DNA from: Vermamoeba vermiformis
Lineage: Eukaryota
Length of the DNA: 64,000 nucleotides
Assembly (NCBI GenBank): GCA_045837725.1
Contig: JBEWZL010000036.1
Span: 1-64,000 of the forward strand
Direction: 5' to 3'
Under the pieces are notes generated by a model. The model was given only the letters and a program-made list of their open reading frames with translations, made no database searches and was not told where the DNA came from. Numbering within the stretch: the stretch's first letter is position 1; the number at the start of each line of letters is the position of its first letter. The translations under genes were made by a program, and so were the position numbers. Below are positions 1,906 to 31,894 of this stretch, one piece after another.

Positions 1906-4068
1906 TCATTTCCTGCAGCGAGGGATCTTCCACCAAGGAATTACAAACACGCCAGCTAGACCGAACGAAATCAAGCCAAGGAAAAATTGGAGTGCTGCAC
2001 CGCCGTGTTCCTCGAGCTCTCCAACTGCGAGCACAAGTGTTAGCAAGGCACAGCACAAGCACGCACTACTTAGTACTACTTACGTATGCCCATGTTGATG
2101 AAAGCAATGACTCCCGAGGCGAATATCGGACCTACTCCGAAGATACATGAGAAGATGTAGCCCATCCAGCCCTTGTAATACAACATTGGACAGCACGTAA
2201 GTCGATCAGGATATGCCAACACTCGAAGCTTCGAGAAGCAGCACAAGCAGCAGCCGTTAAATGTGTCCTTGACTCCACCATACTCAACCTACAATCTGAG
2301 TTAATAATCGCCGTCACTCGATGCAAGAACAACTTACTTCGACGGTACAATCACACGACGTAATACTTGTTGAAGTTTTCTTGTCAATTGTTCGCCCTGT
2401 GGCCACGTCGATTGTTTTCGTCGTTGTTTTAGTGTAATGCACTTCCATCTCCCATTGTGTGACGTCGCCTAGGTAAAGCATTGGTTAAACTAAGAAGTCT
2501 TAAACACCAACGGTGCTTACCGTCATACACTTGGCCTTTTCTCATCAAATCTTGAAAACAAGGGTTGAAAAAGACGAGCGAGAAAAAAATTCCAATTGCC
2601 AGCAAAATAATGTAGATTACGAAGTGCGTTTGAGTGGGAAAGTAAGGGAAGAACGAATCGGCGCAAGGACGAGTCGTGTCCAATGTCACTTGAACGTCAC
2701 CGCCACCGCGAATGAGGAAATACTGATCGTATCCTTCAACGTTGAAGCACTGAGTCTGGCGTACAAAATGACGTTAGCAGCTGTCTTTAAATGCCCAACA
2801 AGCTACTTACCGTCGTTGGAGTATAAACAGAATCGGATTTGAGTGCTACTGAATCGGGTGACTCGTACAGAGCGTTGTAGGTGTAAGTGCCGGCAATAGT
2901 GACTGATTGCAAGCCTACCAAGCCACCGTCGTTGCGTTGAATCAGAAGAATGCTGAAGTCAGCTGCTAGCGCTGCGCTAGGGTTGGAAGGATTGACGACA
3001 ACGGGATCTGACGTTGTTCGGTTAGCAATGCCATTAACTCTGCAATTGGATAGCTTCACTTACTAAGATAAGTAATGTTGACCTTGGGGTCTGCAGTAAC
3101 ATTCAGCGCCTCAATCGTAGCGACAGCGGTGGACTCGGTAGAGGTACCTACGTTACTGAGCAGAGTCTCGAAATATCTACGATCTGAATTGGCGTAATTC
3201 ACTTCGAGGTTGGAGTTATCGCTGACAAAACGTTAATTCTGAACTCGATCAGATCCGCGATCTGGATAGTCAGCGCATACCTTGTAGTTTCAATACTATA
3301 GAGAAAGTTACTCTGAATTAGAACAAAATTCTTCGGTTGTACGGCAAGAACGAAGCTAACAGAGGTGTTTGTTAAGCCAATAATCGTTGACGAATTGATT
3401 GGGCCAGATTCGACATCTGCAGCAAAACAGTTGAACCTATTAGAAGGGATTAATGATTAATGTTCTGAGCAATAAATTCCAATTTACCAAGTTTGTCCCT
3501 CGGACGTCGCTTGATATTGGATTATTCCGGGACCAGACCACGGAATAACTACCGATCTGTCATTTCGGGAGGAGGATAGCGAGCAATCAGTGCCTAAGGA
3601 TGCATTACAACTTGCGTCACTATTGACATAAAAAGAGTGCGCTTACTTTGCCCGCAAGTGAAAAACGGACTTGTAGTTGCGAAATCCGTTTGGTTGGCCG
3701 CGATGGACAAGCTGTAGCCCGTTACCGTTGCGTTCTTCACTAATTCTAGTTGCAAGAGTCTATAATACCTCGTATTAGCCAAATTGTCTCCACAATGCGA
3801 TTACCTACCCGAAACGTATTAGCGCTGTAGAAGGATAGCCAGCAGCATCGTTGCCGCACGGAGCAATAAGCGAAGCAGTGCCGTCGTCTCCTGTATAACC
3901 CGCGGGCTCTGGAGACGTAACCCAACTGTAATATAAACAATTAGTATCAGGAATTACCGTGCTTAATTAGGCAATGTAAATTTACCTGGCAGTTTCTACC
4001 AGCGCGATTGAAGCAAGAGCTAACAAGCAGACAAAATAGAGTGATGGTAGTCGTGGTGCGCGATTCAT
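1906..4068 (-). CDS. Signal-peptide protein with a beta-rich ectodomain and several C-terminal TM segments; function unknown
   Basis: N-terminus MNRAPRLPSLYFVCLLALASIALVETA. TM segments FVIYIILLAIGIFFSLVFF, YIFSCIFGVGPIFASGVIAFI and LQFFLGLISFGLAGVFVIPWW. Multi-exon. Confidence 0.55.
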
Positions 4069-5033
4069 TGTGTTGTTGAATAAAGCGAATTAAAAGAACA
4101 ACACAATAAGAGGTTGAGCCACACGTGCGCAAATCACAAAAAAAAGAATTGGAGGTTGGAGCGGGCAATCACCGACTTGAGATTGAATTGGCGGTTGGTT
4201 TGCTTTGAATTCGTTCCGTTCGAATTATCGCGCATTATTTTAGGTACGCGTTGTAACGTAACGTCTACATGTCTCCAACTGCTGATATTATCATGCCTAA
4301 ACTTTCATTTCACCACCAGCATCCCTGTCAAAATTAATATTAACCACCGAGCCCAATCTGCCGATGACTTCGCTCCAGTAAGAGAAGAAACGAGATCTTA
4401 TATTACCAGGTTCGAAAATAAGGATAAGACAATCCGTATAAAATCTATTACGGCATATTACTATGAATAATAAAGCAGTAAAAGTAATTTCAAAATAATT
4501 AGTAATTTATGGGCAGAAATTAATTTAAATTATTTAAACCGCTCAGATAACTTTATGAACACTTCGGTAAAACGCCCAGGGCACATAACCTGCCATAAAA
4601 TGTCAAAAATACTTACAACTACTCGTAAAATACACTTTTCTCTTATCAGCCTTATAACTCACAGCTTATCAGGCTTTGTTGCATCTAGCGCCTGTGAGTT
4701 ATAAGGCTCCATTGGGTTCGTAATTTACGATTTTAATGTATGGTTTTCGCGGCTTCCTTGTTGTTGGTGTTGGGCTTGGGGTGGGTAATATTTCTAATTT
4801 TTTTTCCTTTTTGATCCCGCGAACACGCACGTCAAATTGTTGTTGGTACTCGATGGAATTGACGGACACAGAGCATATTGTATGCTGTCGCCAATTTATA
4901 AGTATGTAGGAGATTTTGCACAACCGATCCTGTTTTGCTTCTAAAAAGCGGTGAATAATTAAATTACTTAAAATAACTGTTTATGCAAAAAAGGCAAAAA
5001 ACGGCGTTATTCCGCTAACAATAAAAGAAAGCT

Positions 5034-7522
5034 CTACAAGTACATGACAAGAGCTGATAAAGCGGATAATAACACATCGACAGCATTAATCTGCAATGCG
5101 TTGCTAACCTTGCCAGGAGCTGTGCACTGAGCGGCTTCAGTGTAATTCAGACACGTTGAGTTAGCACTCAACCGCGGAATACAGCTTGTCGCAGTGGCAC
5201 ACCAGACGCAACCAGTTTGTCCGAAGCAATCGCTGCACGAAGAAGCTGAGCACGTTACAGGCTCAACAGGGCACGAGGCGTAGTTCCAATAGGCCGTTGG
5301 ACAATAACTGTCAGAGCCATAGAAGTCACCTGATGTAACATTAGAGCTGAGTGGAAGACAGCATTTACGTACCTTTTTGACAAGTACTGCTGTACGAGCA
5401 CCAGCCACAGCCTCCAACGGGAGTGCACGATGAGCACGAGTCAAACGAGCTGCAGATGTCATTATTGGCAACGGGGCTAGAAGAAGGATTTGAGCTGGGG
5501 ACAGCAGACGAGTCTGTACCACGTTAGCAAAAGAGCTATCTCAGTGGATGCTACGTACCAAAGCTAGCTGTAAGAGTGAAAGGCTTGGCGTTGCCTTTGA
5601 CCATCACGTGCCACTTGCCGACTGCGAATGATGTAAGCGGAACATTTCTAAAACAGTTCGTAAGTACTTCTGGCCAGGATTCTTAACACAGTACTTACAT
5701 TGTAGAGTAGCTGTAGTAGTCATAAGCGGAGGTCGTGGGCTCTCGATTGAATGCGAGATACACCGCCTGCGACACCTGACTCGACACGGACAAGCGAATA
5801 GCCATGGCTATGCTTCGTAAGTATTGCTTTTAAGTTTAGTAATCTTACTTACGGGTCATATTTGCAGTAACCTCGAATGAAAATCGAGTTGTTGTTGTCC
5901 AATAGTTGTCACCAGACCAGAAAGATAATGCTTGGTATGGTACGTGGCTACGTAACTCAATCGGGCATGTGACATTGCCTGCGACATAGTTAGATAACAT
6001 TTTCTGAATAGGCTATCCACATACTGGTCAGGAGCGAGAGTGCGACAGATGATTGGTCAGCGAAGGAACGAACGGCAAAATACACTGTGTTCACCGCTTG
6101 AATGTCACACGGAGATGCTGGCAACGATTTGGTACCGCTGTTGCTGTTATACAACGCATAATAACTCGATGTAGGCTGTGCGTCATATTGCATGTAAGTA
6201 GATGTGGTGCCTGTAATTGGCTGAGCTAAAAACACGACGTATTGATTTTGATTGGCGCTGACATCTGTTTTAGCAATCGGTCAGCGTATGTCACAGACAT
6301 TAGGCAATTACCATATGTGTAGTACAGCCAGTGACCAGAGTGGATTACGAGCGTTTCGGAGAATGCAGAAGTAATCGGAGTGACGCACTTGTGGGGCACA
6401 GTGTTTACGGTAAGCTGCATTTGACCACCCGAACCTCCCCAAATAGAGATGTAATATTTACCAGCAGAGACTGTGCAAGGATCCAAGCTGAGGAACTTGT
6501 TGTTCGTGTCGCCTGTGTATCGATCGAGATTATCAGATGTTGTAGGGAGGCGATCTTTCTGCACAAAGATCTCGACATAATCCGCAGTTATTTCCTTGAC
6601 GTTGATGTTCAAGAAATTATTATCAGCGACGTCTATAACATAGTGCTGCCAAGTGTGATAAAGAGGATCGTAGATTTCGGAAAAACCAGATGTAATTGGA
6701 AGAGGGCAGGAACGAAGTCCTGGTACGTCAGATTAGTTAACGTACTCGTTAGGCTTGTCACTTACTATTCTCAAAAGAACCTCCGAATTGCTTGAAAGCG
6801 TTTGACTGACCATTCAACAAGGCAATGAAATGGCGACCGACGGACAAACAACTAAGTTGAATAGTACGGTCTGAGGTCCAGGTCCAGTAATCCAAGTACA
6901 AAGACGAAGTAGGTCTAATATCTTTGTTCCAGTAGATGTAGTTGTAGTCCGTGCTTCCTTGCAGCAGTTGCGCTCTGAATCGCAAAGTATTCTGATCCGC
7001 AGTGGTGACGTCGAAGTAGTAGTAGCGATACTCTCCTGGACCCATTTGGGTGGTTGGTAGTGTGGTATTCAGTGAAAGCGGAGTAATGCAAAGTTGGTCA
7101 CCTATTGCAAAAGAATTAGATCACAAGTTGATTCACTTGCAACACAGACGAATTGTTACAGTGAACTGAGCATTGGAAACAGCAGCATCTGGTCTGAAGG
7201 CGATGTACATGGTGCCTGCAAGGTCGTTGTCGGTGATGAAGCACGAAAATACTTTCAGCCTGTTGTTGCCAGGAGAGACGTAATCCCGTTCAGAGTAAAC
7301 TGAAGTTGTGGGAAGTTGGCCAGAGCGAAAGTAAAAGTACGAGTAAACGCTAGAGATAGCAGTCGATATGTCGATTTCCTGGTTAGCAGCTACAGGGATC
7401 GAAAAGTAGGTCATTGCACCGCCGACTGAGTTGACAGTGATAGTTTGGCCAGATGTCACAGGTGTCACTGTTTGACAAGCGACCAGCTGCAAGGCTACGA
7501 GAACGAAGAAGAGCTTCAACAT
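5034..7522 (-). CDS. Secreted/GPI-type surface protein with repeated beta-sandwich (PPC-like) domains and C-terminal PSI-like Cys repeats
   Basis: Signal peptide MLKLFFVLVALQLVAC. Repeats of Y(R/L)YYxF..xxxPTxSxYD. Cys repeat SCSDCFGQTGCVWCATATSC. Hydrophobic C-terminal tail. Confidence 0.65.
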
Positions 7523-14277: not shown

Positions 14278-17200
14278 ATGGAGAAGGTACTGATACTAAT
14301 TACGAATACTTTCGAAATCACGATTAGTCAATTTCATTAAATAAAAAAATGAAAAAACACGACAGACAATTCATTAATCTACAATATGTAGTCAACCACT
14401 ATCAGCATTACAACAAGAGAATGTTTCAGGCAACTCGTAGACTTTTCGCAAAGCGTTACTACTATAGAGATAAGTTGGTGCGTGATCAGCAATGAAGAGG
14501 GAATTATACTCGCCACCGTGCTCGAACAAAGCACCAGTATACATTAGTGATGCGCAGTGAGTAAAATGTAAATCTCTTATTTTATGTTAATTCTTTTTAT
14601 TTTGGCAGATTGCACCTACAGAGACGATTCGTTTCAATTGATTTGCGAGGCCCTTGCACAAAGCTCTTCGATTAACATCCTAGATATATTTCGTATTAAA
14701 CTCACTTTTAATTAATTTATTAAATATTAATTTTCATTTATTTTTGGCAGCTGTCCATTCACTTGGACCAGAAGGAGCCTTGCATATCGCCTTGATGATC
14801 AGTAACACCAACTCATTGACTGCTCTAACAATATGGAGTAAGATCACCTTCCTTCGAAGGCAACAAAATTAATGATCTCGGAGCCAGACGGCGACATTGG
14901 ACCAGAAGGAGCGAAGCTAATTGCAGAAAGTATCTCGCACAATCACTCACTGAGGAGGCTCGGAATTAAGGGTATGAAATGGACAACGAATCGTCGCCCA
15001 CTAACAGATCTGAAGCCAACGGAATTGAGGACGAAGGGGCTAACTATCTAGCAAAGGCTCTCGCACAGAACACCTCTCTCACGCATTTAGACATCTCTGG
15101 TATGTATAATATATTTACGAAGGCATATCTCGGTGCTCACTTAGAAGTGCAGATAACAACATTGGTTCAGACGGAGCGCTGGGACTGGCTTCGATGATTG
15201 AAACCAATCAAAGCATCACCGAGCTAAACTTAAAAGGTAATTAAATGCACCATCTGCCATCGATCTAACCCTTGCAGACAACAAATTGAATGACGACGGA
15301 GTGACTGCAATTAAAAATGCGATGGAGCGCAATAGAATTTGTCACAAATGTTGGCTGGACGATGATCTGCCGCATATAAACGCGGAGATTGGCTCTGTAA
15401 TTTCATCGCTGACGAGTCAAGACAAACAATTGCGGAAGATTGAGTCCCTAATTACGTCGGATATCCAGCGGATCTGGTTCCGTCGAATTAAATCTACCGA
15501 CTTTATCGAGGATGTCTGTAGCCTGCCCACACTTCGTGCGAAGCTAAAACAAGAGATTGATTCGATCACAGAGCTCCAATGTTTGTCGAAATTGAATTCT
15601 CCCGTGACGATATTGCTCGATGGTGCGGTAAGTTATTTGCTACTGATTACTCAGCCATTACTTATTTAATTGCCACAAAGAGCTCACTGGTAGTCAATGC
15701 CCTTTGTAAGTACTAGGTACTATTAAAGCTGTAATTAACTGACAATTTAGTGTCCGACCTTGGCCGACCATTTGTTGTGATGACGAGTGTAAGTCCTAGC
15801 ACTCCGTACCAACAATCAAAGTACTGATGATGTTGGCAGTTATTTGGCTTCGAGTCCCTTCTCTCCCTGATTCAGCGTAACCATGGGGACGGCGTGATCA
15901 TTGTCGTGCAGGATGTACACGAGAATCAGAAGCAAGTCAAAGAATTCTTCGAACACTGCAAGCAAGCAAATATCGACACAAAATCTCTAACAATCCTCGG
16001 TAAGCTAGGTCCACACTCCGATGTGCCTCTAACACTACGTAGCTACGACGACAAGTGATCACGCGCACGAATTTTCGGTCGATAAAAGCCTTCCAGTCAG
16101 ACTGGGCGACACCTGTTCTATTCACGAATACCTCCTGGCCACCACACGAAATTCCAAAACCATTAAGCTAGCCAAAGAAGAGTTGCCTAAAATTGCAGAG
16201 AAGCTTGCTGGTTAGTCCAAACATGATTGCAATACCTAACGAATCCGGCTGATGCGTGTCAGGTTGCAAGAGATACTATGGGGCAAACTTTGTGTCGCGC
16301 TTTTGGCACAGCTACACGGAATATACCAACTTGTCGCCGTCCGATGTGGACTCACTGCTCATTGAATCGGCACTTTGCAAAACTGGGAGCGAAGTGACAT
16401 TGGAGGACATTGAACGTGTTCTCGATAGCTCTAGACAGTCTTTTTACGAAGGCCATGCCAAAGCCATGGAGGCCAAGATTATTTCGCCTCAAGACTGTCA
16501 AGAGATGACATTGCGCTTCAATTTCTTTCTACGCCGAAAGAGAATTCGTGTCATATGGCTGAACCAATGGTCGAGCTCTGCGTCTATAAATCTCGGCAGA
16601 CTAAATGAAGTGCAGTGGGAGGTTGTAGAGCACCTCTTATCAATCGAAGTGGCTGTTGGTCAAGTGTGGTGCTACTACCTGCGAGTGAACGACGATTTGA
16701 CTTGGCGACTTGGTCCCCCAATTCGGATCGATCTCCCCTCAGCTCACTCGACCGTAAGTCTAGTAGCATATCTCGAACATCTAACCGAAAGCACGAATAG
16801 GTACACGAGCATGCGAGCGACTTTCTCGAAACAGATAATAACATTCTGCGCGACAAATTGAGACGCCTTGAGGAGTTGAAAGTAGAGCACGAAGCAGCGC
16901 TGCGACTCATCAAACGAAACATTTCCAGTACGACCATTAAATTAGTGCGTCTACCTATATTAACAACATTGCAGACTTTCCTTATGAGGAGCTGATGTTC
17001 GAAGAGACACTTGGCGAAGGATCATTTGGCAGTGTTCGCAAAGCAACGTGGTACAACCAAAAGTTTGCGATCAAAGAACTCAAACGGACTGCTCTAAACT
17101 CGCCCGTGACAGTGCTTGCCGAAGCAAAAATCCTTTCGTAATACTCGCGATAAAGCGTTATTCGTGCTTGTACCTGACAACATTCTTAGGCAAGTGCGTC

Positions 17201-17899
17201 ACAAACACATCGTTCTATTGATGGGCACGTCAACAAATCCTGAGAACAATCAACCTGCACTGGTGCTCGAGTATATGAAGCACGGATCACTGCACGACTT
17301 GCTGGCCAAGCGCAAAGTGAAATTATCGCGGTCGGAAATCGTACAAATTGCATTGGATGTTGCAAAGGGACTCGATCACTTGCACAGCCTCACTCCGCAG
17401 ATTATCCACCGCGATCTCAAGAGTGCCAACATATTGGTAAGGATCAAGACACGTGCTAGACGCGCACTGACCATCGACAGTTGTATCAAAAGAGCAAGCG
17501 AGCCAAGTTGACAGACTTTGGTACTGCCAAATGGTTTAGCCAGGACACAATATTTACAGGCGAGACCGGCACATTAGGTTTTATGGCGCCTGAGGTGCTG
17601 GCTTGGGAGCCAATTTATTCGTACAAAGTTGATGTCTATTCGTATGTCATTACTCTGGCGTTCGTTCGGTGACTAACCTCTGCGGTTGTAGCTTTGGGGT
17701 GGTGTTGTTTCACATGCTCAGTAATGCAGGCCTACCTCCAGTAATTGACGAGACGTCACGAGAGAAACGTATCAACGAAGCTATTCGCAACGAAGATCAC
17801 TTCGATCTGAAACAGCTCGTCATTCACTGCTGCAAACAGAACCCAGCACACAGACCTGACATGAGCGAGGTCCTTGGACGATTGAAACAAATGAAGTGA
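14278..17899 (+). CDS. RNI-like LRR + central alpha/beta domain + TKL kinase; apparent frameshift near 14540
   Basis: LRRs IGPEGAKLIAESISHNHSLRRL and IEDEGANYLAKALAQNTSLTHLDIS. Kinase motifs LGEGSFGSV, AIK, IIHRDLKSANIL, DFG, GTLGFMAPE. Confidence 0.75.
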
Positions 17900-17952: not shown

Positions 17953-18688
17953 CTAGTGGAACAGTTTTAATATTTGGCTAATCGGCTCGTTACAAATTAT
18001 GCATTTTTTGCGAGTTTGAAAGGTTTGATCTGCGCATTCAGCACAACACACAAAGTGACCGCAAGGCACGAATGCGTGACTAGGTGGTGCACTATAGCAA
18101 ACAGCACACTCTGCTTCTTGTGGTGTTGGTTGCTGTGCTGCGGGTTGACTCGGTGCTTGCTGAGGCTTTGGTTGCGTCAGATCCAAATCGTACACGATCG
18201 GCGCCGAAGATTTTGTCAGATTTAACTCGATTACAACTGGCTTCATATCTACAAGTGAATTATTAGCTAGTAAAACTTTCTTTGTTTAATCTTACCCGCT
18301 GATAAGGGTGCCCAGTCCTCATTAGGCCACAATTTGACGGCAACAACCTTTGGTTGGTGTTTCACGGCTTTTAAAATGGTTGAAATTAATCGAGCGCGCT
18401 TCAATTCCGTGATGCCCTGTCAAAACAGTCAAAACTAACCTGCGTCACTTTGGGAAACTAACCTGCGCATTTTTCAAGCTTTTTCTGCACAAGGGACATG
18501 TAATTTCATTGCTTCGTTTAAACTCCTAATTAATTAAAAGTTAATCTATTCTTTTACAGTAAAGAATTCGAATTTACCTCCAGATCAAAAGCGGAGTTGT
18601 GACTGCAATTACATCCAATGACCGCTTTTTTAATGCGCTTATTTGTGCCTGGATGCAATAACGAAATTATGACTGGTTGATGCTCCAT
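17953..18688 (-). CDS. Degenerate SP-RING (MIZ) + SIM-like motifs + C-terminal C3HC4 RING fusion protein
   Basis: Spliced sequence MEHQPVIISLLHPGTNKRIKKAVIGCNCSHNSAFDLE|EFKRSNEITCPLC..LWPNEDW..VVIELNLT..IVYDLDLT..CAVC..PCGHFVCCAEC..CIIC. Confidence 0.8.
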
Positions 18689-18794
18689 CAGTGAAGATTA
18701 AAATTAAAAGAAAGGGAATTCGCCAGCCCAAATTTCACAAGCACAAAAACCGAATTTTTGACCGGAACATCAAAAGCAAAAGTTGCGATAAAGA

Positions 18795-19146
18795 ATGGCA
18801 CAAGGAGGAGAGAATATTAAAATATCCGTCCGTGATTGGGTACGTTCTTAAGTCTGTTGATAGCGACATTACTAAATACGCGACGAACAGATGGGCAATG
18901 GTTTGAATGTTGTAGTAAATAGTAAAAATCCTTTAACGGATGTTCAAGCAGCTTATTGCGCTAAGTTCGGCAAAGACACGAGCACTATTAAGTGGGTGTT
19001 CAATAAAAAAGAAGTCGCGATGACAGAAACGCCTGAGAAAGTAAGCAATTCTTCACGTATTCGATCAAACTAATCCATTTATTCAGTTACAAATGACGAA
19101 TGGTGCAAAGTTACATGTAATGGCCGAAACAGAAGGAGGGTTTTGA
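18795..19146 (+). CDS. Divergent SUMO-like ubiquitin-fold modifier (84 aa, C-terminal TEGG-F)
   Basis: Three exons give MAQGGENIKISVRDW|MGNGLNVVVNSKNPLTDVQAAYCAKFGKDTSTIKWVFNKKEVAMTETPEK|LQMTNGAKLHVMAETEGGF*, matching the SUMO pattern PL..L..AYC...G......F.......TP..L.M..G..I....GG. Confidence 0.85.
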
Positions 19147-19292
19147 ATTCACGATTGTGAACAGTTCAATTCTTCATTTTGTTATGTCACAAAAAATCTC
19201 GTGTCCCCAACTAAATAAATTTCAATTTGGCGAATTGAGTTATTATTTCACTTTATTAGACATACTACCAGGTATTAGACACAAACGAATAG

Positions 19293-19988
19293 ATGACCGA
19301 GCTCTCTCCTTCGGTGCGCAGCCTTATGGCAGATTTCAGAAATTTTGAACGACGAGGCATTCGGGTAGGTGCAGTACTCTGAGACGCCGAATCATATTAC
19401 TCACAATCGTTCAAAGGATCGACCTGGCAACTTCTTCGCACGTCCAATTAAAGAAGGAGGCAAGGAAAATTGGTTGCATTGGGAAGCAGGCGTTCCCGGC
19501 CCTGAAAACGTAATTAGAAATTATAGCCCTTGTATATATACGATACTTCGCTAAAACTTTTTGATCGCAGACACCATGGGAAGGAGCAACATACACATTT
19601 ACGATCCAATTCGGTAGTAATCATCCTGCCGTAGCTCCTGTTGTTTATTTCACAGCCCGGATTCTTTCACATGAACGTATTTAGCTCAGGTAGAGTGTGT
19701 TTGAGCTTATTTAATGACGATTGGCACGTGGGAGTCGGTATCTCTCAGGCAAGTGTCATTCTCTTTATTCTTTTTACTCCTAACCGAACCTTTAGATCCT
19801 TCTTGCAATGCAAGATTTGCTTGAAAATCCAAATCCCTATTCTCCTGCCAATAGAGACGCGTTAGAACTCTACACCAAGTAAGTTTTGACACTTGACACG
19901 ATAGTTTGGATCTGATCTTTGCTTCAGTAATATTACAGAATACAACGCACGCATTACGAAACAAAAGGCTCAATACCCACTCTTGTAA
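19293..19988 (+). CDS. Ubc9-like E2 conjugating enzyme; +1 frameshift at ~19655
   Basis: DRPGNFFARP..NWLHWEAGVPGPEN|TPWEG..PGFFHMNVFSSGRVCLSLF..ILLAMQDLLENPNPYSPAN. Catalytic Cys intact. One GC-AG intron at 19749. Confidence 0.85.
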
Positions 19989-20117
19989 AATTAGGAATCT
20001 CCGCCGTTGTGATTCTCAATAAAATTTCAATTTTCGTATTTATTTCAATTCTTCTTTTGTTACTGCAAGAGTCATCGCGCAGCTCAACCTTTGTTATATT
20101 AACGAAACTATTCTAAA

Positions 20118-21350
20118 ATGGGCTGCTGGGTACGTAGTCAGTCGTCTGTTACTAGTAATAACTTCCTGCAACTGCTCAGCTTTCGTTGTGCGACACCGGA
20201 GCAGATAACGAAGGTATTATTTTTTCCATTTCTCCTAAATTTGATGTTGAATTTCTGATTTTTAATTAATTTTAATTGGTGCAGTCGCCGAGATTAAGAA
20301 ACCACTCGCTAAATATGACTATTCGGCACGAGAATCGGTAGAACGACCTTTAATACCGTCATATTCAGGAAATGATCTTAATTACAACGCAAGAGCGGTA
20401 TCTCAGCGACAACAACAGTCGTACAATGGATCTTCGTGGCCAAACACGCTGAAGGACCAGAATGCGAGAGTTATTGCTTCAACTGCTTCTCTGCATGAAA
20501 ACAAGAGACATGCGCCAATCCATCAGAATAATCAAGCGGTCCAAGACACGCCACTCGAGGTCAGCGAGGATCAACCTCTCGACGACTCGATTGTCTATGA
20601 CTTGGACTTGACACAAGTGAGCACGACCGCGGTGTCAGCGCCGAGTTTGTACGTCAATATCATTGGCGGCGTGCCTGTGCGCAAGACTGACTTGCAGAGA
20701 CTTGAGGAGGGCGTCTTTCTCAACGATTCAATTGTCAACGCGTACTCAGAGTATTTGAAGCGCGAATTCCTGCACAACGGAGGAAATCCGAACACATATT
20801 ACTTCTTTCAGACGTTTTTCTACACCGGATTGGCGGACAAAGGCTACAAATTCGTCAAAGAGTGGCTCTCTGAGGTAATTGACCTGCTTCTCGCAGCACC
20901 ACAGCACTCATCGTTGTATTCAGAAAGATTACCTGCATGCGCAATATTTAATAATACCTATCAATGTGTCCAATATACACTGGAAGTTGGCTGTCGTAGA
21001 TCTCGCTTCGTTCCAAATTCAGATCTATGATTCGATGAGCGCTAACGCTCAAAAAGAGGCAAAAGTAAGATCCAAATGATCATTCCACTGACTTGTGGGA
21101 ATATTAACCGTTTCCGTTTCAGAAAATTCAAAAATGCTTCACTAAAGAATTAGGCGTCTCAGCCCAGACTCGATGGAGTATCTGCGCCATGTCAACACCG
21201 AAGCAAATGAATGGCTACGATTGCGGAGTGTTCTTATTGAAATATCTGGAATGCATTCTTTCTAATTCTCCGTTTGATTTTACGCAAGCCGATATTACCA
21301 GTTACCGTAAACACATCTCTCAAATCTTATCAACGTACCGATCCGATTAA
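20118..21350 (+). CDS. Ulp1/SENP (C48) deconjugating protease
   Basis: LNDSIVNAY, FFQTFFY, IIPINVSNIHWKLAVVD (His), IYDSM, PKQMNGYDCGVF (Gln/Cys). N-terminus MGCWLSLC. Confidence 0.88.
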
Positions 21351-21500
21351 TAAATTCAATCTTATTAACACGAAAGAATAGAACAATTCGCTTTTTCAAT
21401 CACAAACTTGAACTTCCGCGCTCCGAAGTCATTTCAGGTTGTGAAATTAATTCAATTATCTGTCAAGTTACCACAAACACTACTCTTACTAGTAACGGAA

Positions 21501-23045
21501 ATGAATATTGAGATAACAGGTATGATCGTCCATAAGCAGCAATGTAAAGAGCATTACGTTAACGAAATGTAGAGTTAATTTCGATCTACTGCCCTTTAAG
21601 CAAGGACAGACTGCAAGATCCCGTTAAAGGCCACCTATGCGAGCATATCCAATGCTTTGACAGAGAAGTGAGTGAAAAGTGAATTTCTTTCGGCATCCGA
21701 TCAATTCTTTCGGAGCTTGGATCCATTTATTCACAATTATTAACCATCTCTACGTAGTCAATAGCCATGTTCAAGTCAATTGTGGATCTGTCCGTGTGTC
21801 CAATTCCAAACTGCAATAAAGAATTGGATCATGTACGTACTATTGGTCATCTACGCTTAGCAAAGTTTTTTAATAAGAGCGCAGGATAATTTGGTGCGCG
21901 ATGCAACTCTCAAAAGAATTTTGGACACCTTATGCACAAACCCTCGAATCGATGACATTGAAAATATCGAATTCAATCCTGCCAACGGCAAGTGGAAGGC
22001 AGTGGGTCTCGACGACGAGCATGTGATTACCGTTCCCAGAATTGGGGGGCTGAGATCCTCTGTTCAATTAAATCAGCAAATGTTGACATCGGTGTCAGGT
22101 GGATTGAAGAAAACCTCCAGTCCACCGATGCACCGCGCGGCTACGAGTCCTAGCCAGACTGATTTCCGCTCTGTTCTAAAGCGGTCTCCAAACAAAGACA
22201 ATCAACCCGTACAAGTTACCCGCAGTGCCAGCCCGGTCAACGCGCCGAATAATAATTTGATTCACCCAGCCAGTCCGAGTCTAGCCAAGAATAATGTCCG
22301 ACGAAATTCTTTAGATCCCATTGTCCATCCAAACCCTGCAAAAGTGCCTCCAAAGAGCCCAGGGGTGAAAAAGATGGGTCCTGCGGGAGTAAAAAAAATG
22401 AACAACAATAACGTCACCGTGAACCCAAACAATTCAAACATTGGTAATTCAGCGATACCTTACACAAATAATGCGAACAATAGGAACAGTTTAAACAGTG
22501 CTGACAACGCGAACCTAAACAATTCAAACGTAGTCAATCCAGCAATCAATCTTAATAAGCAGGTCAATGCCTTCAACGGGCATCAATCAAACAACTCGAA
22601 CGCTAACAACATGAACAATGTCAATACTATGAATATCGCGAACAGCTCAATCCGTGCAACCAACGTAAATAATACCAATCGCAGTCCAGAGGCAACCCAG
22701 CCAACGGTCCAAGTTCAACAACGAGCTACTGACATGATTATCCTATCTGATTCCTTCTCGGATTCAGAGTCTGATTCAGAGTCTTCTTTGCACTCGGCGC
22801 AGTCAGATGTGTATTCAGACTCGGATTCACAAGTAGCCGATAATATCGTTTTCGATCTCGACCTGACAGGCGGAAGAACGATAGTACCGAGCAGTAGTAC
22901 CACCTTGGCACTCATTAAAAACGGTAAGTAATTCTATCAACACTTGTCATTCTAATAGCTCTTAGTGGTGCAATCCAACGTTCGATATTTGACGCCAGAA
23001 GACAGAAGAGCTTGCCGAGAGTTTATTACTTCATTGTTGAATTGA
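21501..23045 (+). CDS. SP-RING (PIAS/Siz/Nse2-like) E3 ligase with Asn-rich linker and SIMs
   Basis: ISIYCPLSKDRLQDPVKGHLCEHIQCFDRE..VCPIPNCNK..NLVRDATLKRIL..FNPANGKW. Later IILSDSFSDSESDSE and IVFDLDLT. Confidence 0.82.
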
Positions 23046-25981
23046 TTAATGTATCTTGGAAAGAATGATTTTGAATAAAGGCACGGCAGACGATGAATCT
23101 GCGTCGAGATCATCCACGTCCATGATCGTGTTCCAATTGACGCGACTGAACAGCAAATCTGTCGCTGAAGGGTCCAAAACCGATGCATCCCTAAAAGAAC
23201 GTCACTAATTGCCTTCTACTTCAAATACAAGCTTACGGTAGCATGATTAAAGGCTCAATTTGTCGCGTTTCTCGCACTAGTTGTACAAACTGGGCTACGG
23301 TGGTCGTTTGCTCATCAACTCCGATGCGCACTACATTGACACCACACACATCACAAGTTTTGCGCGGTAACTCAGTCTTGAGAATCATCTTCATCTCTTC
23401 GCTCGGTACTTCGATCAAGTTTAATCTGATTGTTTATACTATGGCGTGAGTATTAACGATCAGTACGATACATACGGTACTTACTTGTTCATTGTTTGAC
23501 CAGTGAGCAGTCGGATGAACTGCAATGTCATCAGTCCTGCAATCGTAGAATTGGCCGTGGCTCCCGCAGGAATGATGTTGCCTGCAATTTCTGCAAAAGC
23601 AATTATCATTGTTGCGTCCGCCAAGATTGCGACATGCGTTACTGTGGCTTACTTTTTACCTCAAAGATGGTGGTCATTGGAATACCAAAACAATGCGCTC
23701 TAATATTGGTCAATGCGGCGGTGAATGCAACCATATCAAGATCATCTTTGTCGAACAGAATGACGCCGTGTTGAGCTCTGTCATTTAACTGTTCAAATCT
23801 GCGATGGCGTCAGAGGGAGTCACGTGGCTCAGTGCACTTACGTTCTAGCAAATACAGATATGTTGTGTTCGAGACTGCCAGCACTATATTGATCGATGGC
23901 CACTCCTCCTTGTAGGTTGTAATTGTCCAGTCTGAGATGTTCGCCGAACAGCTGCAAGTCAATATTAAACCAAATCTTTTAAACCGAGTAAATACCTTGC
24001 TGAAAGTGTCCTTCATGGACAGTTTTTTCAAGTCAATGTCTTGTTTGTCGGCTTCGGTCAAATTAACTTCTGAGATCAGCTCTTCATTCCAAATTAAACT
24101 AAAATCCATCAGCAATAACGCCAAAATTAGGGAGATTGTACGTACTTAAAAGTGAATTTCGCCCAAATGACGCAATGCTGAATGGTTGATGGATTATCTC
24201 GGATTGTACAATAGGGAAACTTTTTTGGTGCTGGATGTGGATCACAAGCGTAACAAGAGATGCCCTATTTATCGATTAGGTACCGAAATACTCTAAACCA
24301 GCCTACCTTTGCATAAGTAGTGATTTGTCCGATATTTCCTTCGGTTCCTCCGTCAATTAGCGGGATCCCGAAATACTGGCTCATTTTATTGATGTAATAT
24401 CTAGCATCTGGTTGACCTTGTTATTAGCTGTGTTTTCAACGTCTATACTGCTCTGTTAATCCTATTACCTGAGTTATCGAGAGCGCCAAATAAGCACGTG
24501 AATTGATCGTAGCCTGACAGCGGCAAGGACTGCACTTTTTGAGTGATAGGACGAATATCAATATTGGGAACGAATTGCTGTATTTGTTCGGCGACTACCT
24601 AAATCAACGCGGTGAACGGTGAACACGATTTTACTTTGTGACACATGAAATTTGGCGAATTGGGCAAAAAGAATAATAAATATGATGAAAGAGAGGGATA
24701 TAATAGAAACGATAATAATAATTACCTCGGCTTTGTATTTTTTGAGCCCTTTTCCTTTGTCCTCATCAAAGCAGAATAAGAATTGACGATTTAGGTTGCT
24801 AGTGCTAATAGTGTCCATGTCCACCTACTTAATTGTCAACAACACGTTCAAAGAGTGTATTATTACCAAAAAAGTTGTATTAAATAAATTGAGAATCTTT
24901 TTATACCACGATACTTTTTTTTCTATATTTTCACGCACATAAAATAAAAGAAACCTCCACACACGCCCCGGGGCGGGAGAGGGAAGAAAGGTAGAAAGAG
25001 CGCCCCCAGTGAAGAGGGCTTTGGGGGGTAGACCGGGAAGGGGAGGAGCCGGTTTAAAGGCAAAATCCACCTCAAAACCGTTAATCGCCCTGCATATCAA
25101 CAGTGATGGGAGAATTTTCTTTGTTCAACCAGGATCAGTAACAATGGGTATAAAAACAACGACGATGAGCCTATGCACATTGAAAATTGTGGAGAGAGCA
25201 CGTGACCAACAACGGAACTACTGCACGCCCAAAGAAACAAAGACCAGCCAGTGATGACTCGGAACTGCCATCAAAAAGCACTCGATCTCGTACACGCGAG
25301 GACTCTGATAGTGAAGATGACCGCGCCCGTAAGCGTCATAAATCAGACAACAATCTGTCGAATCAGGTCTCACCACAGCTCACCGAATTGCTTGCTGATG
25401 TTGCAAGCATTGGACAGAATATCTCTGCTTTATCAGCAACCATCAGTTCACAGCATGATAAAACATCTCGTCAGCTCGTACTCTTGAACAACACAACCAA
25501 CGCAAAGCATACTGCCATCGAAGAACGATTGAAGTCTTTGTCTGACGAGATAAAGGCAGTCAATAGTTCAATCAAGACATTGGATGAAGTTGTGCAACGC
25601 ATATTGTCGCACGTGAAAGCTGACGCGAAAGAGAAGGAAAAGGTTGTTGTCGTACAAGCACCAATACCTCAGATGCGCCAAGAGCCTCACTATGTTGTGC
25701 CACCAAACTACTACTCGGGAACACCCTCATACAATGGCCCATACAATAGTCCTTCATCACGTTTTTTCTAAGACGATTTGTCATAGCAAATTTCAATAAA
25801 ACGAGAGATATCTCATTTTATCTAATTTAACTTTCAAAGTAATGCCGGTTACACCCAGCAAAGCCAAATTCTTGACCAGCTCGCATCCAATCCCACCGGC
25901 ACCAACAACCAAGACGTTTGCCTGCTTAATTAGGTCTGTAATTGACGGCAACCCGTAGAGTATTTGCACTGTCTTGTCCAT
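23046..25981 (-). CDS. UBA2/SAE2-like E1 catalytic subunit, interrupted by a TIR element after exon 1
   Basis: VLVVGAGGIGCELVKNLAL..|VDMDTISTSNLNRQFLF..ALDN..IPLIDGGTEG..CYAC..FPYCTIRDNP..HCVIWAK (catalytic Cys)..FDKDD..AGNIIPA..CDVC. Confidence 0.88.
24871..25834. mobile_element. 964-bp non-autonomous DNA-transposon-like insertion with ~28-bp imperfect TIRs and a 4-bp TSD (CAAA)
   Basis: Left end AAAGTTGTATTAAATAAATTGAGAATCT; right end reverse-complemented AAAGTTAAATTAGATAAAATGAGATATCT. CAAA at 24867-24870 and 25835-25838. Removing it restores the exon TTG|GTAATA donor and a ~42-nt intron. Confidence 0.8.
25187..25771 (+). CDS. Cargo ORF inside the TIR element (basic NLS-like segment + coiled coil); 5' end appears degraded
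   Basis: 194-codon open frame with RPKKQR..RARKRHK and heptad repeats. No in-frame ATG start, and upstream in-frame stops. Confidence 0.4.
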   Translation: MWREHVTNNGTTARPKKQRPASDDSELPSKSTRSRTREDSDSEDDRARKRHKSDNNLSNQVSPQLTELLADVASIGQNISALSATISSQHDKTSRQLVLLNNTTNAKHTAIEERLKSLSDEIKAVNSSIKTLDEVVQRILSHVKADAKEKEKVVVVQAPIPQMRQEPHYVVPPNYYSGTPSYNGPYNSPSSRFF

Positions 25982-26038
25982 GTTGATCTGCAACAAAATA
26001 AATAACTTGCGGACAAAAACTAAAACCAAATCACTTTA

Positions 26039-27177
26039 TTACATACTAGTCAAGTCGAGCTCTTCAATTATTCCTTCAACAATGGGCGCGGCATCATTAG
26101 GCAATGATACGACGAGAGTCTCGCCCGTGGCTTCTAACACCAGGCAATTGAATGTAGTTGGCTCTCGCTTGGTGATGCATTTGAGCACTTCATTTGCCGC
26201 CAAACCACCCAATATCGCCACAGTCGGTGTGAGACAGGCTAGACTGCGATGTGCCTCCAACAACAATGTCTCTTGCGCCGATAACTCGTCCTCCAGTTCC
26301 TTCGAATTCATCGCTGAACAACGATGTTACGAATGACGCCGATAATAACACTGAGAGTGGTACCTTTGAATATTCGCAACACGCTCGGCGACTGATTGTC
26401 AATGCTGGCCAATGCTGCGCTAAGCGGAGGATAAGAGAAAGTCGTAGTGTCCTCGTCGTGGGCACTTCTAATGCAAACAAGAGTAAGCCAAGCAACAGTT
26501 AGGAGTGAGACGAACCTGCCAAAGGAGTGCAATCCAAAATCAATCAGAATGTAGCCCACGAGTCCCAAGCACTGTGTCGCGAGCATGTTCACATGCCACG
26601 TACGGAAGAAATCGTTGAACTCTTCCTGCAATGAACATTAGCGAAAGGATCGATGCACGGCTGCTTAGCTTACTAACTCTCCATACTGTCTGGAAGTCGA
26701 ACATATTATTTGAATAGACCTATATGACCCATGCCACGCATTATCTCGTACTACAGACAGCAGATCTGCGTCAATTAAATGCACACGAACCAATTCGTTT
26801 AATTTGCGCAGTTTTGTTGCAGCGGCGTCGATGATCTGCATATGCGGTCACCCTACGCTCTAACAATCATTGTCTTACCTTTGCTCCCACAGAGTTTGAA
26901 CTCAAAAAGAAGTTGCTTTTGACATCCTGCTCGCTCACTCGCCGATCGTCAAAAATGTAAATATCTTGCACTCCAGCTAGGATGATATTCTTCACAATTT
27001 CTATATTTACGCCTTCCAATTTATCAATACCAATAACCGCACGCTTTAGCCTGAAACAAATTCATAAATTCAAAAAAGAATACGCGATATTGAGTATTAC
27101 CTTCGTTGTCCTTCTACACCGTGAATATAGAGCTGGCGCGAATAAAGATCGCTTTCGAAAGGAGTTAATTGGTCCAT
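26039..27177 (-). CDS. AOS1/SAE1-like E1 regulatory subunit
   Basis: MDQLTPFESDLYSRQLYIHGVEGQR..EIVKNIILAGV..D..VSEQDVKSNFFL..LRKLN..GLVGYILIDFG..LTPTVAILGGLAANEVLKCITKREP..N. Confidence 0.85.
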
Positions 27178-27674: not shown

Positions 27675-30600
27675 TCAGATCAATACATGTGCTTCCCCAT
27701 AAATTAATTTTGACAGACTCTGAACTACCTCTGCAATTGCGGGTCGTCGAGTTGGATCTTGCTGCCAACACTGCACAATCAAGCTCGCCAATTTGTGGTT
27801 CATGTCTGGTGGAATGGACAATCTGCCGCCCTTGAGAACAAAGCGTTCGATCTCTGACTGCCATTGAAACTCGACGTCAGAAAATGCGTGCTCATTGGTG
27901 ATCACTTCCCAGGCTAGAATAGCGAAGCTGTAAATATCTGCTGCCTTGTCAAAGCGCGGACTCTTTCCCAGTGTTTCTGGGGCCATGTACTTGGTTGTAC
28001 CGATGTTTTGGGTCATTGTCGCGGCAGCAGAGTCCGACACAAACTTTGAGGTGCCAAAGTCAGTTAATTTGACGTGACAGGTGGCCTTGTGCTCCAATGC
28101 GAACACGAGTCACAGCGGCGATGTCGCGATGGAGATGTTTTTGAATGCAGGAAGTGATGGCACGCGCGACCTCGAGTAGAATGACCATCTTCAGCGAGAG
28201 TGGCAGCGGGGTCTCCTCGAGCACACCAGCTAAATTTCCAAGCGGGGCCAGTTCAGTCACCAAGGCCAGTTTTCCTTCTATATTCGAGGCACCAACGAAC
28301 TGCACAATGTTCGGATGATGCAAACTGCTCATCACCGCTACTTCTCGCTCGAACTCGGTTTGTGTGGATGGTCATTGCTGATTCAACAAGATTTTCACGG
28401 CCACCGACTGACCCTTGTAGGTACCTTTCTTCACCGTTCCGAATTAACGATGGATTGTATTAGACTTGGCGCCATATTACCTCTCAAAGCACTTACCCGC
28501 CCTGTCCTAACACCTGATCCGAGATCTCTACATCATCGACATCAATCCACGGCGAAGGTTTGCCCACGACACTGAAAGTGAGTGACGAATATTTCTTAGT
28601 CCTCTCCGACACTACTACGAGCTGTATATCTGCTTTGGTGGTGATCTTCAATTTGACCCACACAGTCAGCATGACCGTGCAGCCATCTCCCAGCGCGAAT
28701 GAACTGGGGTCTACATTTACTTCGAACTTGGGTGATTTGGGCGCGTAGATGTCGAACCGCTCCTCACCATCGAGCAAGCTTTGGTGAAGGAATGACAGTC
28801 GGCCGGTCTTCGCCTTCTTTTTCGAGGTCATTAAGAGAGTGCCTTGAAACCAGACGCTGATGTCCAAAGGTCCGTGCTTCTTGTCAAATCCCAGCTGCGA
28901 CGTGTCGAGCACCATGGGCAGCTGAGTGGGCGAGCAATAAGAGTAAGAGTCGTCAGGCGTCCACTCCCACGAGATCGAGCTGATAATCTTGCCGGCTCTT
29001 TTGTCGATTATGTCTCGCTTGGCGGCATTCAGCATGGATTTGAGCTCCACTTCTTGCCGCTTGACTTTGCTGAATCGCCGTCTAACCACGATCACTACGA
29101 CCACTGCAGCGATAACAAGCCCTGCCGCGATTGGTGGCAGAATGTGTTCGTACGCAGGGATGAAGACGTCGGTGCAACTCTTTGTCGAGCCTGCAGGATT
29201 GGTGGCAATGACGCACACGTTGTATGTGATAGCGCACTGAAAGCCTTGAAGTGACAGTACGGCCCCTGTAGCATTGAGCGGCTCTCCATTGCGCGTCCAA
29301 CAGAATGAGGTGTTGTCTGTACGGGCTAGATGTGCACGAACAGTTGCCATGGATATGTTGCCACAAGCTGAGGAGTCTGTTATCAGTTCGACATTGGGCT
29401 TCGACAGCACTTCCACGCTAGTCGTTACTTGTGTTGTCAATCCGCAGCGATCTCGCACGGCGAAGCGAATTTGGTATTGACCTGCTGGCCTGCTGTTCGT
29501 GTCGATGCGGAACGCGGCACTTTCACTCTGGCGGTGGTCATTGACTGCCCACGAATAGGTCAGATTTCTTCCCGCGGTGCCAGGCGTGAAGCTCGTAGAC
29601 TGCGACACAAAGATGGTGCGCGGCTCCAACCGTTCAATGGTCGGCAGTTCAATGCGCATGAGCCCGTTCAGGTACAGCAGGACAAAGTTCTTCCAAAAGA
29701 ACACCTTGGCCAGGGTCGTGCTCAAGTGCAGCGACGTGGGTGTGCTCGTGTCGTAGAAGTAGAACTCGTGCTGATTGTTGAGCTCGCCGTACATCACCAA
29801 GTAGTTGCCCACCGCGCGAATGAACGAGCCCGCCATGACTGGGACCAGCAGTCGATCGGACGTCCTGTTGCTCAAATTGAGTCGGTACACATTGCTGTTG
29901 TAGCGCAGATAGATCCACGGGTCAATGACTGTTTGGCCGAAATTGAGGCCTAGTCTCTCTGGCTGCGGCAGCGTCATGGAATTAACTCGCGTTCCGTTGC
30001 GATCAAAGACATCGATGACATCTGACAGGTGCAGATGATCGGTCCACACACCGCCGATGACGGCAATCAGAGATCCGTGCCACTTAATCGCGGGCAATGC
30101 TCGTGCTTGCGTCAAATTGAAGGTGGCACTGCTGTTCGTGTTCAACGAGTACCTGATGAGTGTGTTCAGCAGCACCTCCTGCGCGTCAATGCCCCCTGCA
30201 ATGAACAGTTCACCATCGATGAGTGCTGCGCCGTGCAAGCGACTGCCCACTGGGAGATGTAAGAGGCACCAAGTGTTCGACCTCTCGTCGTAGATGTCAA
30301 AGGCAGTCGTGACGCGTATGGTACTCAAAAATATAATGCGGTGGGAAGTGTAGAGCACCATATCTGGTATGACGTGGCTCTCGAGTTCCTGTGTGCGCCA
30401 AGTGTTGCTCGAGGCATGGTACATGTGCACAATGGGATCCGTGTCTTCCACAAAGTACACCGTGTTGCCCAGCACTCGCACCAAGGCTGCATTGTACGGC
30501 GAGGGAATAGTCGTGTAAATCCACTGCCCGCTCATCGGTGAGAGCACGTACAACTGCAGCGGTGGCACGGTGCTGTTGAGCAGTTCACCGCCGTAGAAGA

Positions 30601-31894
30601 ACACGTAGTCGCGCGCTGATAGGCCCCTGATGTTCTGGCGAGGAGCTGCGTCGATGGGTATGGTGTGATTGCGATTGGTCGCGAGGTTGTAGAGCTGCAC
30701 GCGGGGACTCGGCGCATTGAAGTTGGCAGCGATCAGATAGTCAGCGTGTTGAATCACAAAGTCTGCACTGTGCAAGGGCACAAATTCGTGGTGACTCTGC
30801 GCCATGTCATACACCAACAGTCGTCGACCCGAATTGAAGTTGGCATTCGGTCGCCAATCAGCGATGTACAACGTGTTATTCAGCGCCGTCACCGAACTGG
30901 TACGGAAGTTGTAGTTGTCATATTGCCACGAATACTGCAGATTCGATGCGACGTTGTAGAACAGTATTGAATTGACGGTGAGTCTGCTCGGGCCATGAAG
31001 CAGCACTAGCTGGTCGTTGTGCAGCACTCCTGCACTCGCGGGGCCTATTTTCGTCACCTTAGCGGTGTAGGTGCCCAGCAGCGGATTGATTTGGATCACA
31101 TCGCGAAATGTCACCACAAACACTGCCACTGCGTTGTGGATCTGGGCAGCGAACACCATGTTGATGCCAAAGCGGATGCTCGTCCGCAGTGTCGTGTTGC
31201 GCCAAGTGCCATCAGTCGTGTTGTACCTGGCAATGCTGTCGCGCGCCACAAAATAGATCAGAGTGCCGTGGGCTGCAGCCCCCTGATACGCCCTAGCAGT
31301 CTCCATGACACCCGTCTCGTTCGTGGTTGTATCGTACGTGAACATGCTGCGCGAGCGCTGGTGATAGAACAGCACCTTGTGACCTGCAGCGACTGACCGC
31401 GAACCCCGAGGCAGAGTGCCACTGAACGAGACAGTCCACGCCACATTGTGCACCAGGTCCAACACGTCCATAGTCTCGTTGACTAGAGACGCGTCGTCGT
31501 AGGAGAATCCACCCGCGACAAACAACCACTGGCCGTGTGTGGCGTACGTAGCGTCCTCGCGCGTGTCATTGCGCGACTGATAGTGCATGACGCGAGTGGT
31601 GTTGCGCGCAGGATTCAGCACGTCTACCTTCGAGGACGCACCAGCCAATAGAATCTCATCGCCAATGACGGCAATGTGGCTCGTGGGATCGGAGAAAGTG
31701 GGTGGATGGATGGGCTCGACGAAACAACCTGAGTGCGCGGGTTAATAATTCATACGCAGTCGATTGATGAGCTGCGTTACCTGTTCCGTGCGCGCACAGC
31801 AGTCCCAGCACCAGCAGCGTGACTGACCGTACAATCGTTAGCACCAGTCCTGCAACAGGCACGAACAGCACTTACACAATACGCACTTGGCCAT
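27675..31894 (-). CDS. Receptor-like TKL kinase with kelch-like propeller repeats and Ig/PKD ectodomain; catalytic loop damaged by indels (pseudogene or consensus error)
   Basis: Signal peptide, LFVAGG/LFIAGG/VFFYGG repeats, TM IAAGLVIAAVVVVIVV. Kinase motifs VLGQGG, VAVK, HPNIVQFVGA, KLTDFG, GTTKYMAPE. The HRDI region is out of frame at ~28105-28160. Confidence 0.78.

Follow-up and report, generated by a model that had tools for sequence, protein, structure and literature searches.

A recurrent octapeptide resembling SUMO-interacting motifs in the enzymes of a clustered SUMO-like pathway of Vermamoeba vermiformis

Why should enzymes that have nothing else in common carry nearly the same eight residues? 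The question is raised by a 64 kb stretch of Vermamoeba vermiformis contig JBEWZL010000036.1 (the window, by which we mean the whole stretch of DNA analysed), a eukaryotic locus with short GT-AG introns. Seven adjacent genes here, for which we built intron-aware models from their coordinates, encode a candidate modifier resembling SUMO (small ubiquitin-like modifier), together with enzymes of the kinds that activate, conjugate, ligate and remove it. A first-pass annotation, made from the DNA letters, had noticed an octapeptide recurring in several of these enzymes and had taken it for a SUMO-interacting motif (SIM). The recurrence is real and far beyond chance. The octapeptide may be a docking peptide for the modifier encoded by the cluster itself.

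The pattern [IV][IV]x[DE]L[DN]LT has exactly five matches in a six-frame scan of the window, all within 18175-26071, and each lies where the first-pass annotation had placed it. Two are found close together on the reverse strand in a protein with SP-RING and RING parts, an E3 ligase: VVIELNLT (18214-18237) is the first copy and starts 13 residues ahead of the second, IVYDLDLT (18175-18198), which has the SP-RING-like part on one side and the C-terminal RING on the other. IVYDLDLT occurs again on the forward strand in the Ulp/C48 protease (20590-20613), preceded by the acidic run EDQPLDDS and followed about 34 residues later by the start of the Pfam C48 match. The PIAS-like SP-RING E3 has IVFDLDLT near its C-terminus (22845-22868, forward strand), with a long Asn-rich region before it and a Ser/Asp-rich run immediately preceding it. 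The fifth copy, IIEELDLT (26048-26071, reverse strand), is in the C-terminal tail of AOS1, 2 residues before the stop and about 23 past the last residue aligned to human SAE1.

When the pattern was loosened, the sole extra site in the window was LISEVNLT in UBA2, on the reverse strand in the exon after the catalytic-Cys exon and inside the enzyme body; its significance is uncertain. The annotation was right that this peptide is present, but had placed it at 24059-24082, 3 nucleotides (nt) from its actual position of 24056-24079. All five strict octapeptides and the loose UBA2 site are in coding exons of the gene models. Pfam, PDB and folding analyses were run exon by exon and not with spliced full-length proteins as queries. 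On this basis the strict copies all fall outside the catalytic and zinc-finger matches that were recognised: that of AOS1 lies past the SAE1-aligned part, the others between or ahead of Pfam domains. The names given to the host proteins are supported by Pfam and PDB matches (RING, C48, zf-MIZ and SAE2, with AOS1 weakly matched), and outside the octapeptide these proteins are otherwise unrelated.

A recurrence of this kind could be without function, either as chance similarity or as the residue of a recently copied DNA segment, and it counts in favour of such an explanation that the pattern was written after the matches had been seen. From composition, however, 0.00024 strict matches are expected in the 1769 amino acids of six cluster proteins, against five observed; 0.0045 are expected in the whole six-frame translation of the window, and one of 5000 shuffled sequences had at least one match. 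Because the pattern was defined post hoc, a pattern-free search for shared peptides was also run. No two cluster proteins have a longer peptide in common than the 9-mer IVYDLDLTQ, which is found in both the RING E3 and the Ulp protease; in 300 shuffles the longest was a 7-mer, which was reached once and never exceeded. The two copies of IVYDLDLT differ in seven of their eight codons, all synonymously, and the DNA on either side cannot be aligned. A DNA repeat or gene conversion is thereby ruled out as the origin of the copies, and what is under selection is the peptide. We regard a functionless recurrence as extremely improbable, and the expectation, shuffle and codon results effectively refute it. 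That unrelated proteins share a peptide so far beyond chance argues that the cluster works as one system, as the first-pass annotation had proposed on the ground that the motif stands in non-homologous proteins.

The nearest known peptides are SIMs. The SIM of PIAS1 is VIDLT, with (I/V)DLT as its core (PMC4907222), and SIM2 and SIM3 of RNF4 are VDLT (PMC3901395), which documents the (V/I)DLT form that the first-pass annotation had named as PIAS-type. A 2025 review gives a SIM three elements: a core of four residues, at least three of them hydrophobic (especially Val, Leu or Ile), a stretch that is acidic or can be phosphorylated, and, optionally, an extension of the strand; it lists SIMs in PIAS E3s, in RANBP2 and in the E1 subunit SAE2 (PMC12751080). 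SUMO-targeted ubiquitin ligases (STUbLs) combine SIMs with a RING (PMC3901395). Four of the five octapeptides end in DLT and the fifth in NLT, so that they share the D-L-T type of ending, and IEELDLT of AOS1 is like VEVIDLT of PIAS1 (translated from the primer printed in PMC4907222) at six of seven positions. The position of the Val that begins the PIAS1 core holds Asp or Glu in all five copies, and a hydrophobic pair lies further upstream; the whole is an eight-residue strand pattern in which hydrophobic and acidic residues alternate.

The hosts also belong to classes in which SIMs are known, namely a PIAS-type E3, a ligase with SIMs and a RING, and an E1 subunit (PMC12751080), and by this analogy a SIM-like reading is a reasonable fit to the SIMs of SUMO enzymes. 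An acidic or Ser-containing flank is clear at the Ulp copy (EDQPLDDS) and at the SP-RING E3 copy (the Ser/Asp run), in both cases before the motif; elsewhere (both copies in the RING E3 and that in AOS1) the surroundings have Ser-Ser or single acidic residues only. Some 30 residues upstream of IVFDLDLT the SP-RING E3 has a further SIM candidate, canonical-looking and read from its sequence, in which MIIL leads into a run of 14 residues of Ser, Asp and Glu (22734-22787, forward strand). This E3 might therefore read two different modifiers.

We put at about even the chance that the octapeptide docks, as a strand of SIM type, onto the modifier that the cluster itself encodes, each step of the binding being one that we infer. 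By this mechanism a flexible stretch would turn into a beta-strand on the binding groove of a SUMO-family modifier, and a near-identical docking peptide would be set on AOS1, on both E3 ligases and on the protease of a private, clustered SUMO-like pathway. The likeliest receptor would be the 84-residue modifier of the cluster, since no other molecule has to be recognised by all four enzyme classes. On AOS1 the tail would catch free modifier so that it can be activated, and in the E3s the copies would keep modifier in place, either on the E2 or on a substrate. The two copies in tandem ahead of the RING would, much as in RNF4, recognise proteins that are modified once or several times, and the copy in the protease would recruit conjugates. 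It is plausible that the octapeptide co-evolved with the divergent modifier.

Searches with the modifier used its 50-residue middle exon (exon 2). The top PDB matches are SUMO2/3 chains, which make up 29 of 34 among the matches listed, though weakly so: single-copy chains have E values of 0.24-0.53, and a two-copy chain one of 9.5e-5. There was no Pfam SUMO-family match to this exon, and a word-based search among proteins of 27-88 amino acids gave no candidates; among the exon's neighbours in language-model space is a SUMO cluster (0.87), no more than a lead. At its C-terminus the spliced model reads Gly-Gly-Phe-stop, as for Ulp-type processing, with cleavage predicted, and in the PDB alignment of exon 2 the hydrophobic groove positions are retained as Val, Val, Val and Tyr. 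For the modifier with a 33-mer of the RING E3 that contains both motifs, complex prediction gave 0.08 and 0.17 against a mark of 0.34, the modifier having been entered as three exon chains, two of them under 30 residues, unlike the calibration. For the last exon of the RING E3, AlphaFold2 run on the single sequence gave a model with a mean predicted local distance difference test score of 50.3; even the RING was unfolded in this model, which is thus uninformative on whether the motif is disordered.

Several observations weigh against a SIM for this modifier. The UBC9-like E2 has no copy of the octapeptide, and motif enrichment was measured against the 64 kb window only. Three of Val, Leu or Ile within four residues are found in one of the five copies (VVIE). 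If Tyr and Phe are counted, the hydrophobic-core rule fits four of the five (IVYD twice, IVFD and VVIE), and IIEE of AOS1, with two hydrophobic residues, fails. The invariant residues (an acid, L, D/N, L and T) also differ from the canonical four-residue hydrophobic core. On these counts, and with a core position acidic, we call the octapeptide a SIM-like variant and not a canonical SIM. On the side of the receptor, the SUMO2 lysines that flank R-H-T-P-L-S align to Asn and Asp in the modifier. In SUMO1, K39 and K46 are the lysine prongs for acidic SIM residues (PMC12751080); both prongs being lost here, an acidic SIM is no obvious fit. This cuts both ways: judged from sequence, the altered groove would suit a private motif, yet an acidic peptide is not what it would most obviously bind.

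The searches for relatives add two points on the same side. In a HMMER search of the Ulp exon against 1.84 billion representative proteins there were 70 hits (best E 8.6e-7), nearly all covering the C48 part alone, and neither the strict nor the loose motif occurs in any of these 70 distant C48 homologues. No orthologues of the modifier, protease or AOS1 exons were found in the protein or contig collections. The 1.84 billion representative proteins held no close orthologue of the protease exon. A further protein search with the Ulp exon gave 71 candidates, none at E 0.001 or better, and the last AOS1 exon, compared with longer proteins, gave 334, none at E 0.01 or better. Neither metagenome contigs (236 pattern matches) nor viral contigs (36 pattern matches) held a relative of the Ulp exon. 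Within a close relative whose contigs cover the protease exon, 13 differences all fall outside the motif, where about 0.5 would be expected inside, so that the comparison has no power.

A phmmer search of two motif peptides against the PDB gave 0 matches. A degenerate DNA pattern for IVYDLDLT was found at no fewer than 120 metagenome loci and at 15 viral loci; the 62 translated matches among those listed stand in unrelated and apparently mostly prokaryotic contexts, and we read the metagenome and viral matches as chance. As a separate observation, the best HMMER match to the Ulp exon (P0002, 311 amino acids, E 8.6e-7) aligns to the N-terminal region of the protease, residues 10-33 of the exon, and not to the protease domain. 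This stretch (20312-20383) is 55% identical to a unit repeated four times in P0002, and from its sequence it may be a second short conserved peptide.

Two other functional readings have to be set against docking to the cluster modifier. The octapeptide might be a SIM for the canonical SUMO of the organism, in which case the enzymes would be recruited to SUMOylated proteins and a second modifier would be coupled to SUMO, as STUbLs couple ubiquitin. Among known motifs it is nearest to canonical type-b SIMs (VIDLT, VDLT); it keeps acidic residues that would suit the lysine prongs of true SUMO (PMC12751080), the same positions at which the cluster modifier has Asn and Asp; and the RING E3 has the SIM-plus-RING layout of a STUbL. 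However, it is not obvious why an E1 subunit and a processing protease should need to bind a different modifier, and an Asp or Glu standing for the core Val in every one of the five copies suggests a receptor unlike canonical SUMO. We consider this reading unlikely.

It is also possible, though we doubt it, that the octapeptide makes no contact with the modifier and docks some other shared partner, acts as a sorting signal of a partial leucine-rich export type, or pairs with itself as a beta-strand and so joins the enzymes. The alternating pattern gives one hydrophobic strand face, which could pair with many surfaces or with itself. The hydrophobic-x-x-L-x-L spacing is, we presume, that of the last part of leucine-rich export signals, but a full signal was rejected, as the upstream residues, for instance those at the Ulp copy, do not complete the pattern. 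Moreover, on any of these readings both the likeness to DLT-type SIMs and the presence of the peptide in enzyme classes that bear SIMs would be coincidence. An N-glycosylation sequon, N-L-T, was also considered and rejected, being present at two sites only in proteins expected to be cytosolic or nuclear. Docking to the modifier is the reading that we prefer.

The seven genes all fit within 9.3 kb. Their introns were checked against spliced contigs of a relative that is 95-99% identical, and in these contigs the predicted introns, a GC-AG intron among them, are skipped with edges that agree to within the ambiguity of the alignment. There are 14 joints among those listed and 15 further ones, and most introns were confirmed; the cluster genes that these contigs cover are therefore spliced and expressed in that relative. 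No reads aligned from the RNA runs X21 and X23, which carry no weight as a test. The spliced contigs also exposed one extra intron in UBA2 and a last UBA2 exon that was absent from the first model.

Beginning at the left end, the SP-RING-like and RING protein (196 amino acids) lies on the reverse strand at 17953-18688, with exons at 18688-18578, 18525-18463, 18416-18296 and 18248-17953 and all three of its introns confirmed. It matches Pfam zf-C3HC4_3 at 9.4e-14, and zf-MIZ weakly (0.0031). The modifier (84 amino acids, ending in Gly-Gly-Phe) is read from the forward strand at 18795-19146, in exons 18795-18839, 18891-19040 and 19087-19146, with both introns confirmed. The start codons of these two divergent genes are 106 nt apart, a spacing which suggests that they share a promoter.

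The UBC9-like E2 (161 amino acids; 19293-19988, forward strand) has five exons and one GC-AG intron, and six of the seven PDB matches to its exon 2 are UBC9, the best at E 0.0035. Its exon 3 (19640-19680) has one surplus base in the window, near 19653/19654, which breaks the frame. This base is lacking both from DNA-type contigs of the organism itself (X1) and from the relative's spliced contigs (X6), which restores the frame; both sets have two or three substitutions close by (19642, 19658, 19676). A pseudogene was therefore ruled out, and the frameshift has the look of an error in assembly or of a variant allele.

The Ulp/C48 protease (334 amino acids; 20118-21350, forward strand) is encoded by exons 20118-20129, which is unconfirmed, 20180-20213, 20285-20874, 20924-21064 and 21123-21350, and matches Peptidase_C48 at 5.1e-10 and 3e-8. 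It is followed on the same strand by the PIAS-like SP-RING E3 (435 amino acids; 21501-23045), with exons 21501-21519, 21573-21667, 21758-21832, 21885-22923 and 22966-23045 and a zf-MIZ match at 2e-11. UBA2 (468 amino acids; 23046-25981) is on the reverse strand in 11 exons, the last of which (23190-23046) was taken from a spliced-contig joint; its catalytic-Cys exon matches SAE2 at 5.3e-9. The convergent stop codons of the SP-RING E3 (23043-23045, forward) and UBA2 (23046-23048, reverse) abut, so the 3' ends of the two genes must overlap. AOS1 (299 amino acids; 26039-27177, reverse strand) has exons 27177-27101, 27050-26879, 26835-26674, 26625-26516, 26467-26364 and 26313-26039 and weak ThiF and SAE1 matches. 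From its stop to the UBA2 start there are 57 nt.

Intron 1 of UBA2 holds a stretch of 968 nt (24867-25834) at which contig depth is about 4000-7000, against 190-300 around it. One DNA contig of the same organism skips this stretch, and the remaining intron would be 39 nt. An open reading frame for a coiled-coil-like protein of 195 amino acids lies within it on the strand opposite to UBA2 (25184-25771, forward). The 968-nt stretch is probably a mobile or repeated element present in high copy number. Protein-kinase genes border the cluster on either side (17116-17899, forward, and 27675-31648, reverse), one of them large, with a 1051-residue exon containing repeats and a transmembrane segment followed by kinase exons. 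Neither flanking kinase gene contains a copy of the octapeptide.

That enzymes of a SUMO pathway contain SIMs is already known. What is new is that one uniform, re-registered form of eight residues is shared across a SUMO-like pathway that is complete and clustered and to which no close relatives were found; a literature search for a clustered eukaryotic SUMO-like pathway likewise gave nothing relevant among the matches listed. SIMs are usually loose and hard to recognise, and here one sharply defined version marks four enzymes of a compact cluster. The octapeptide is thus a ready-made, mutable handle for testing what holds the enzymes of a modifier pathway to their tag. If the peptide binds the cluster modifier only, the motif could be used to find readers and substrates of the pathway in the proteome, and it would count, as sequence evidence of an independent kind, towards these seven adjacent eukaryotic genes being a single functional unit, an arrangement uncommon except in prokaryotes.

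A bolder version of the docking reading, which we offer only tentatively, would make the cluster a SUMO-like pathway that is orthogonal and restricted to its lineage and has a docking code of its own, in which a modifier groove without prongs would be matched by the same re-registered SIM variant on an E1 subunit, two E3s and a protease. Such a code, if true, would insulate the pathway from canonical SUMO and its readers, and a peptide that bound the cluster modifier only would make a natural insulated pair of modifier and motif. More speculatively, a private code might keep a protist SUMO-like signal unreadable to viral mimics of SIMs.

Compared with the type-b SIM of PIAS1-4 (VIDLT), the octapeptide has the same D-L-T ending with hydrophobic residues upstream, and in the PIAS-like E3 it too is C-terminal to the SP-RING and beside a run rich in Ser, Asp and Glu. 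It differs in having Asp or Glu, in each of the five copies, where the PIAS core V-I-D-L begins with Val, the hydrophobic pair being shifted upstream, and in that the acidic/Ser run precedes the motif, whereas the flanking region described for PIAS1 is C-terminal (PMC3901395).

The RING protein resembles STUbLs of the RNF4 type in having two closely spaced motifs, DLT and NLT, upstream of a C-terminal C3HC4 RING. RNF4, however, has four SIMs against two motifs here, and the present protein also has an N-terminal SP-RING-like zinc finger, weakly matched (E 0.0031). We know of no other protein that combines an SP-RING-like finger, SIM-like motifs and a RING, no search having been made for this architecture. 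The first zinc ligand of the SP-RING-like finger is apparently His, and the C3HC4 RING is of the IAP/MUL1 type. Judged by its domains, this protein may be a ligase that bridges SUMO-like and ubiquitin pathways.

As in SAE2, for which a SIM is listed (PMC12751080), an E1 here would have a short modifier-binding peptide outside its fold, although in this case it is a candidate. Unlike in SAE2, the clear copy is at the extreme C-terminus of the SAE1-like AOS1, and UBA2 has only the loose match inside a domain. Atg7 and UBA5 are other E1s with tails that capture their modifier. Set beside the canonical SUMO pathway as a whole (SUMO, SAE1/SAE2, UBC9, PIAS and Ulp/SENP), the locus is unlike it in gathering seven genes within 9.3 kb and in a modifier whose searched exon has weak PDB similarity to SUMO and no Pfam SUMO match. 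It is like it in that every class of component is present, each matching its SUMO-specific counterpart best.

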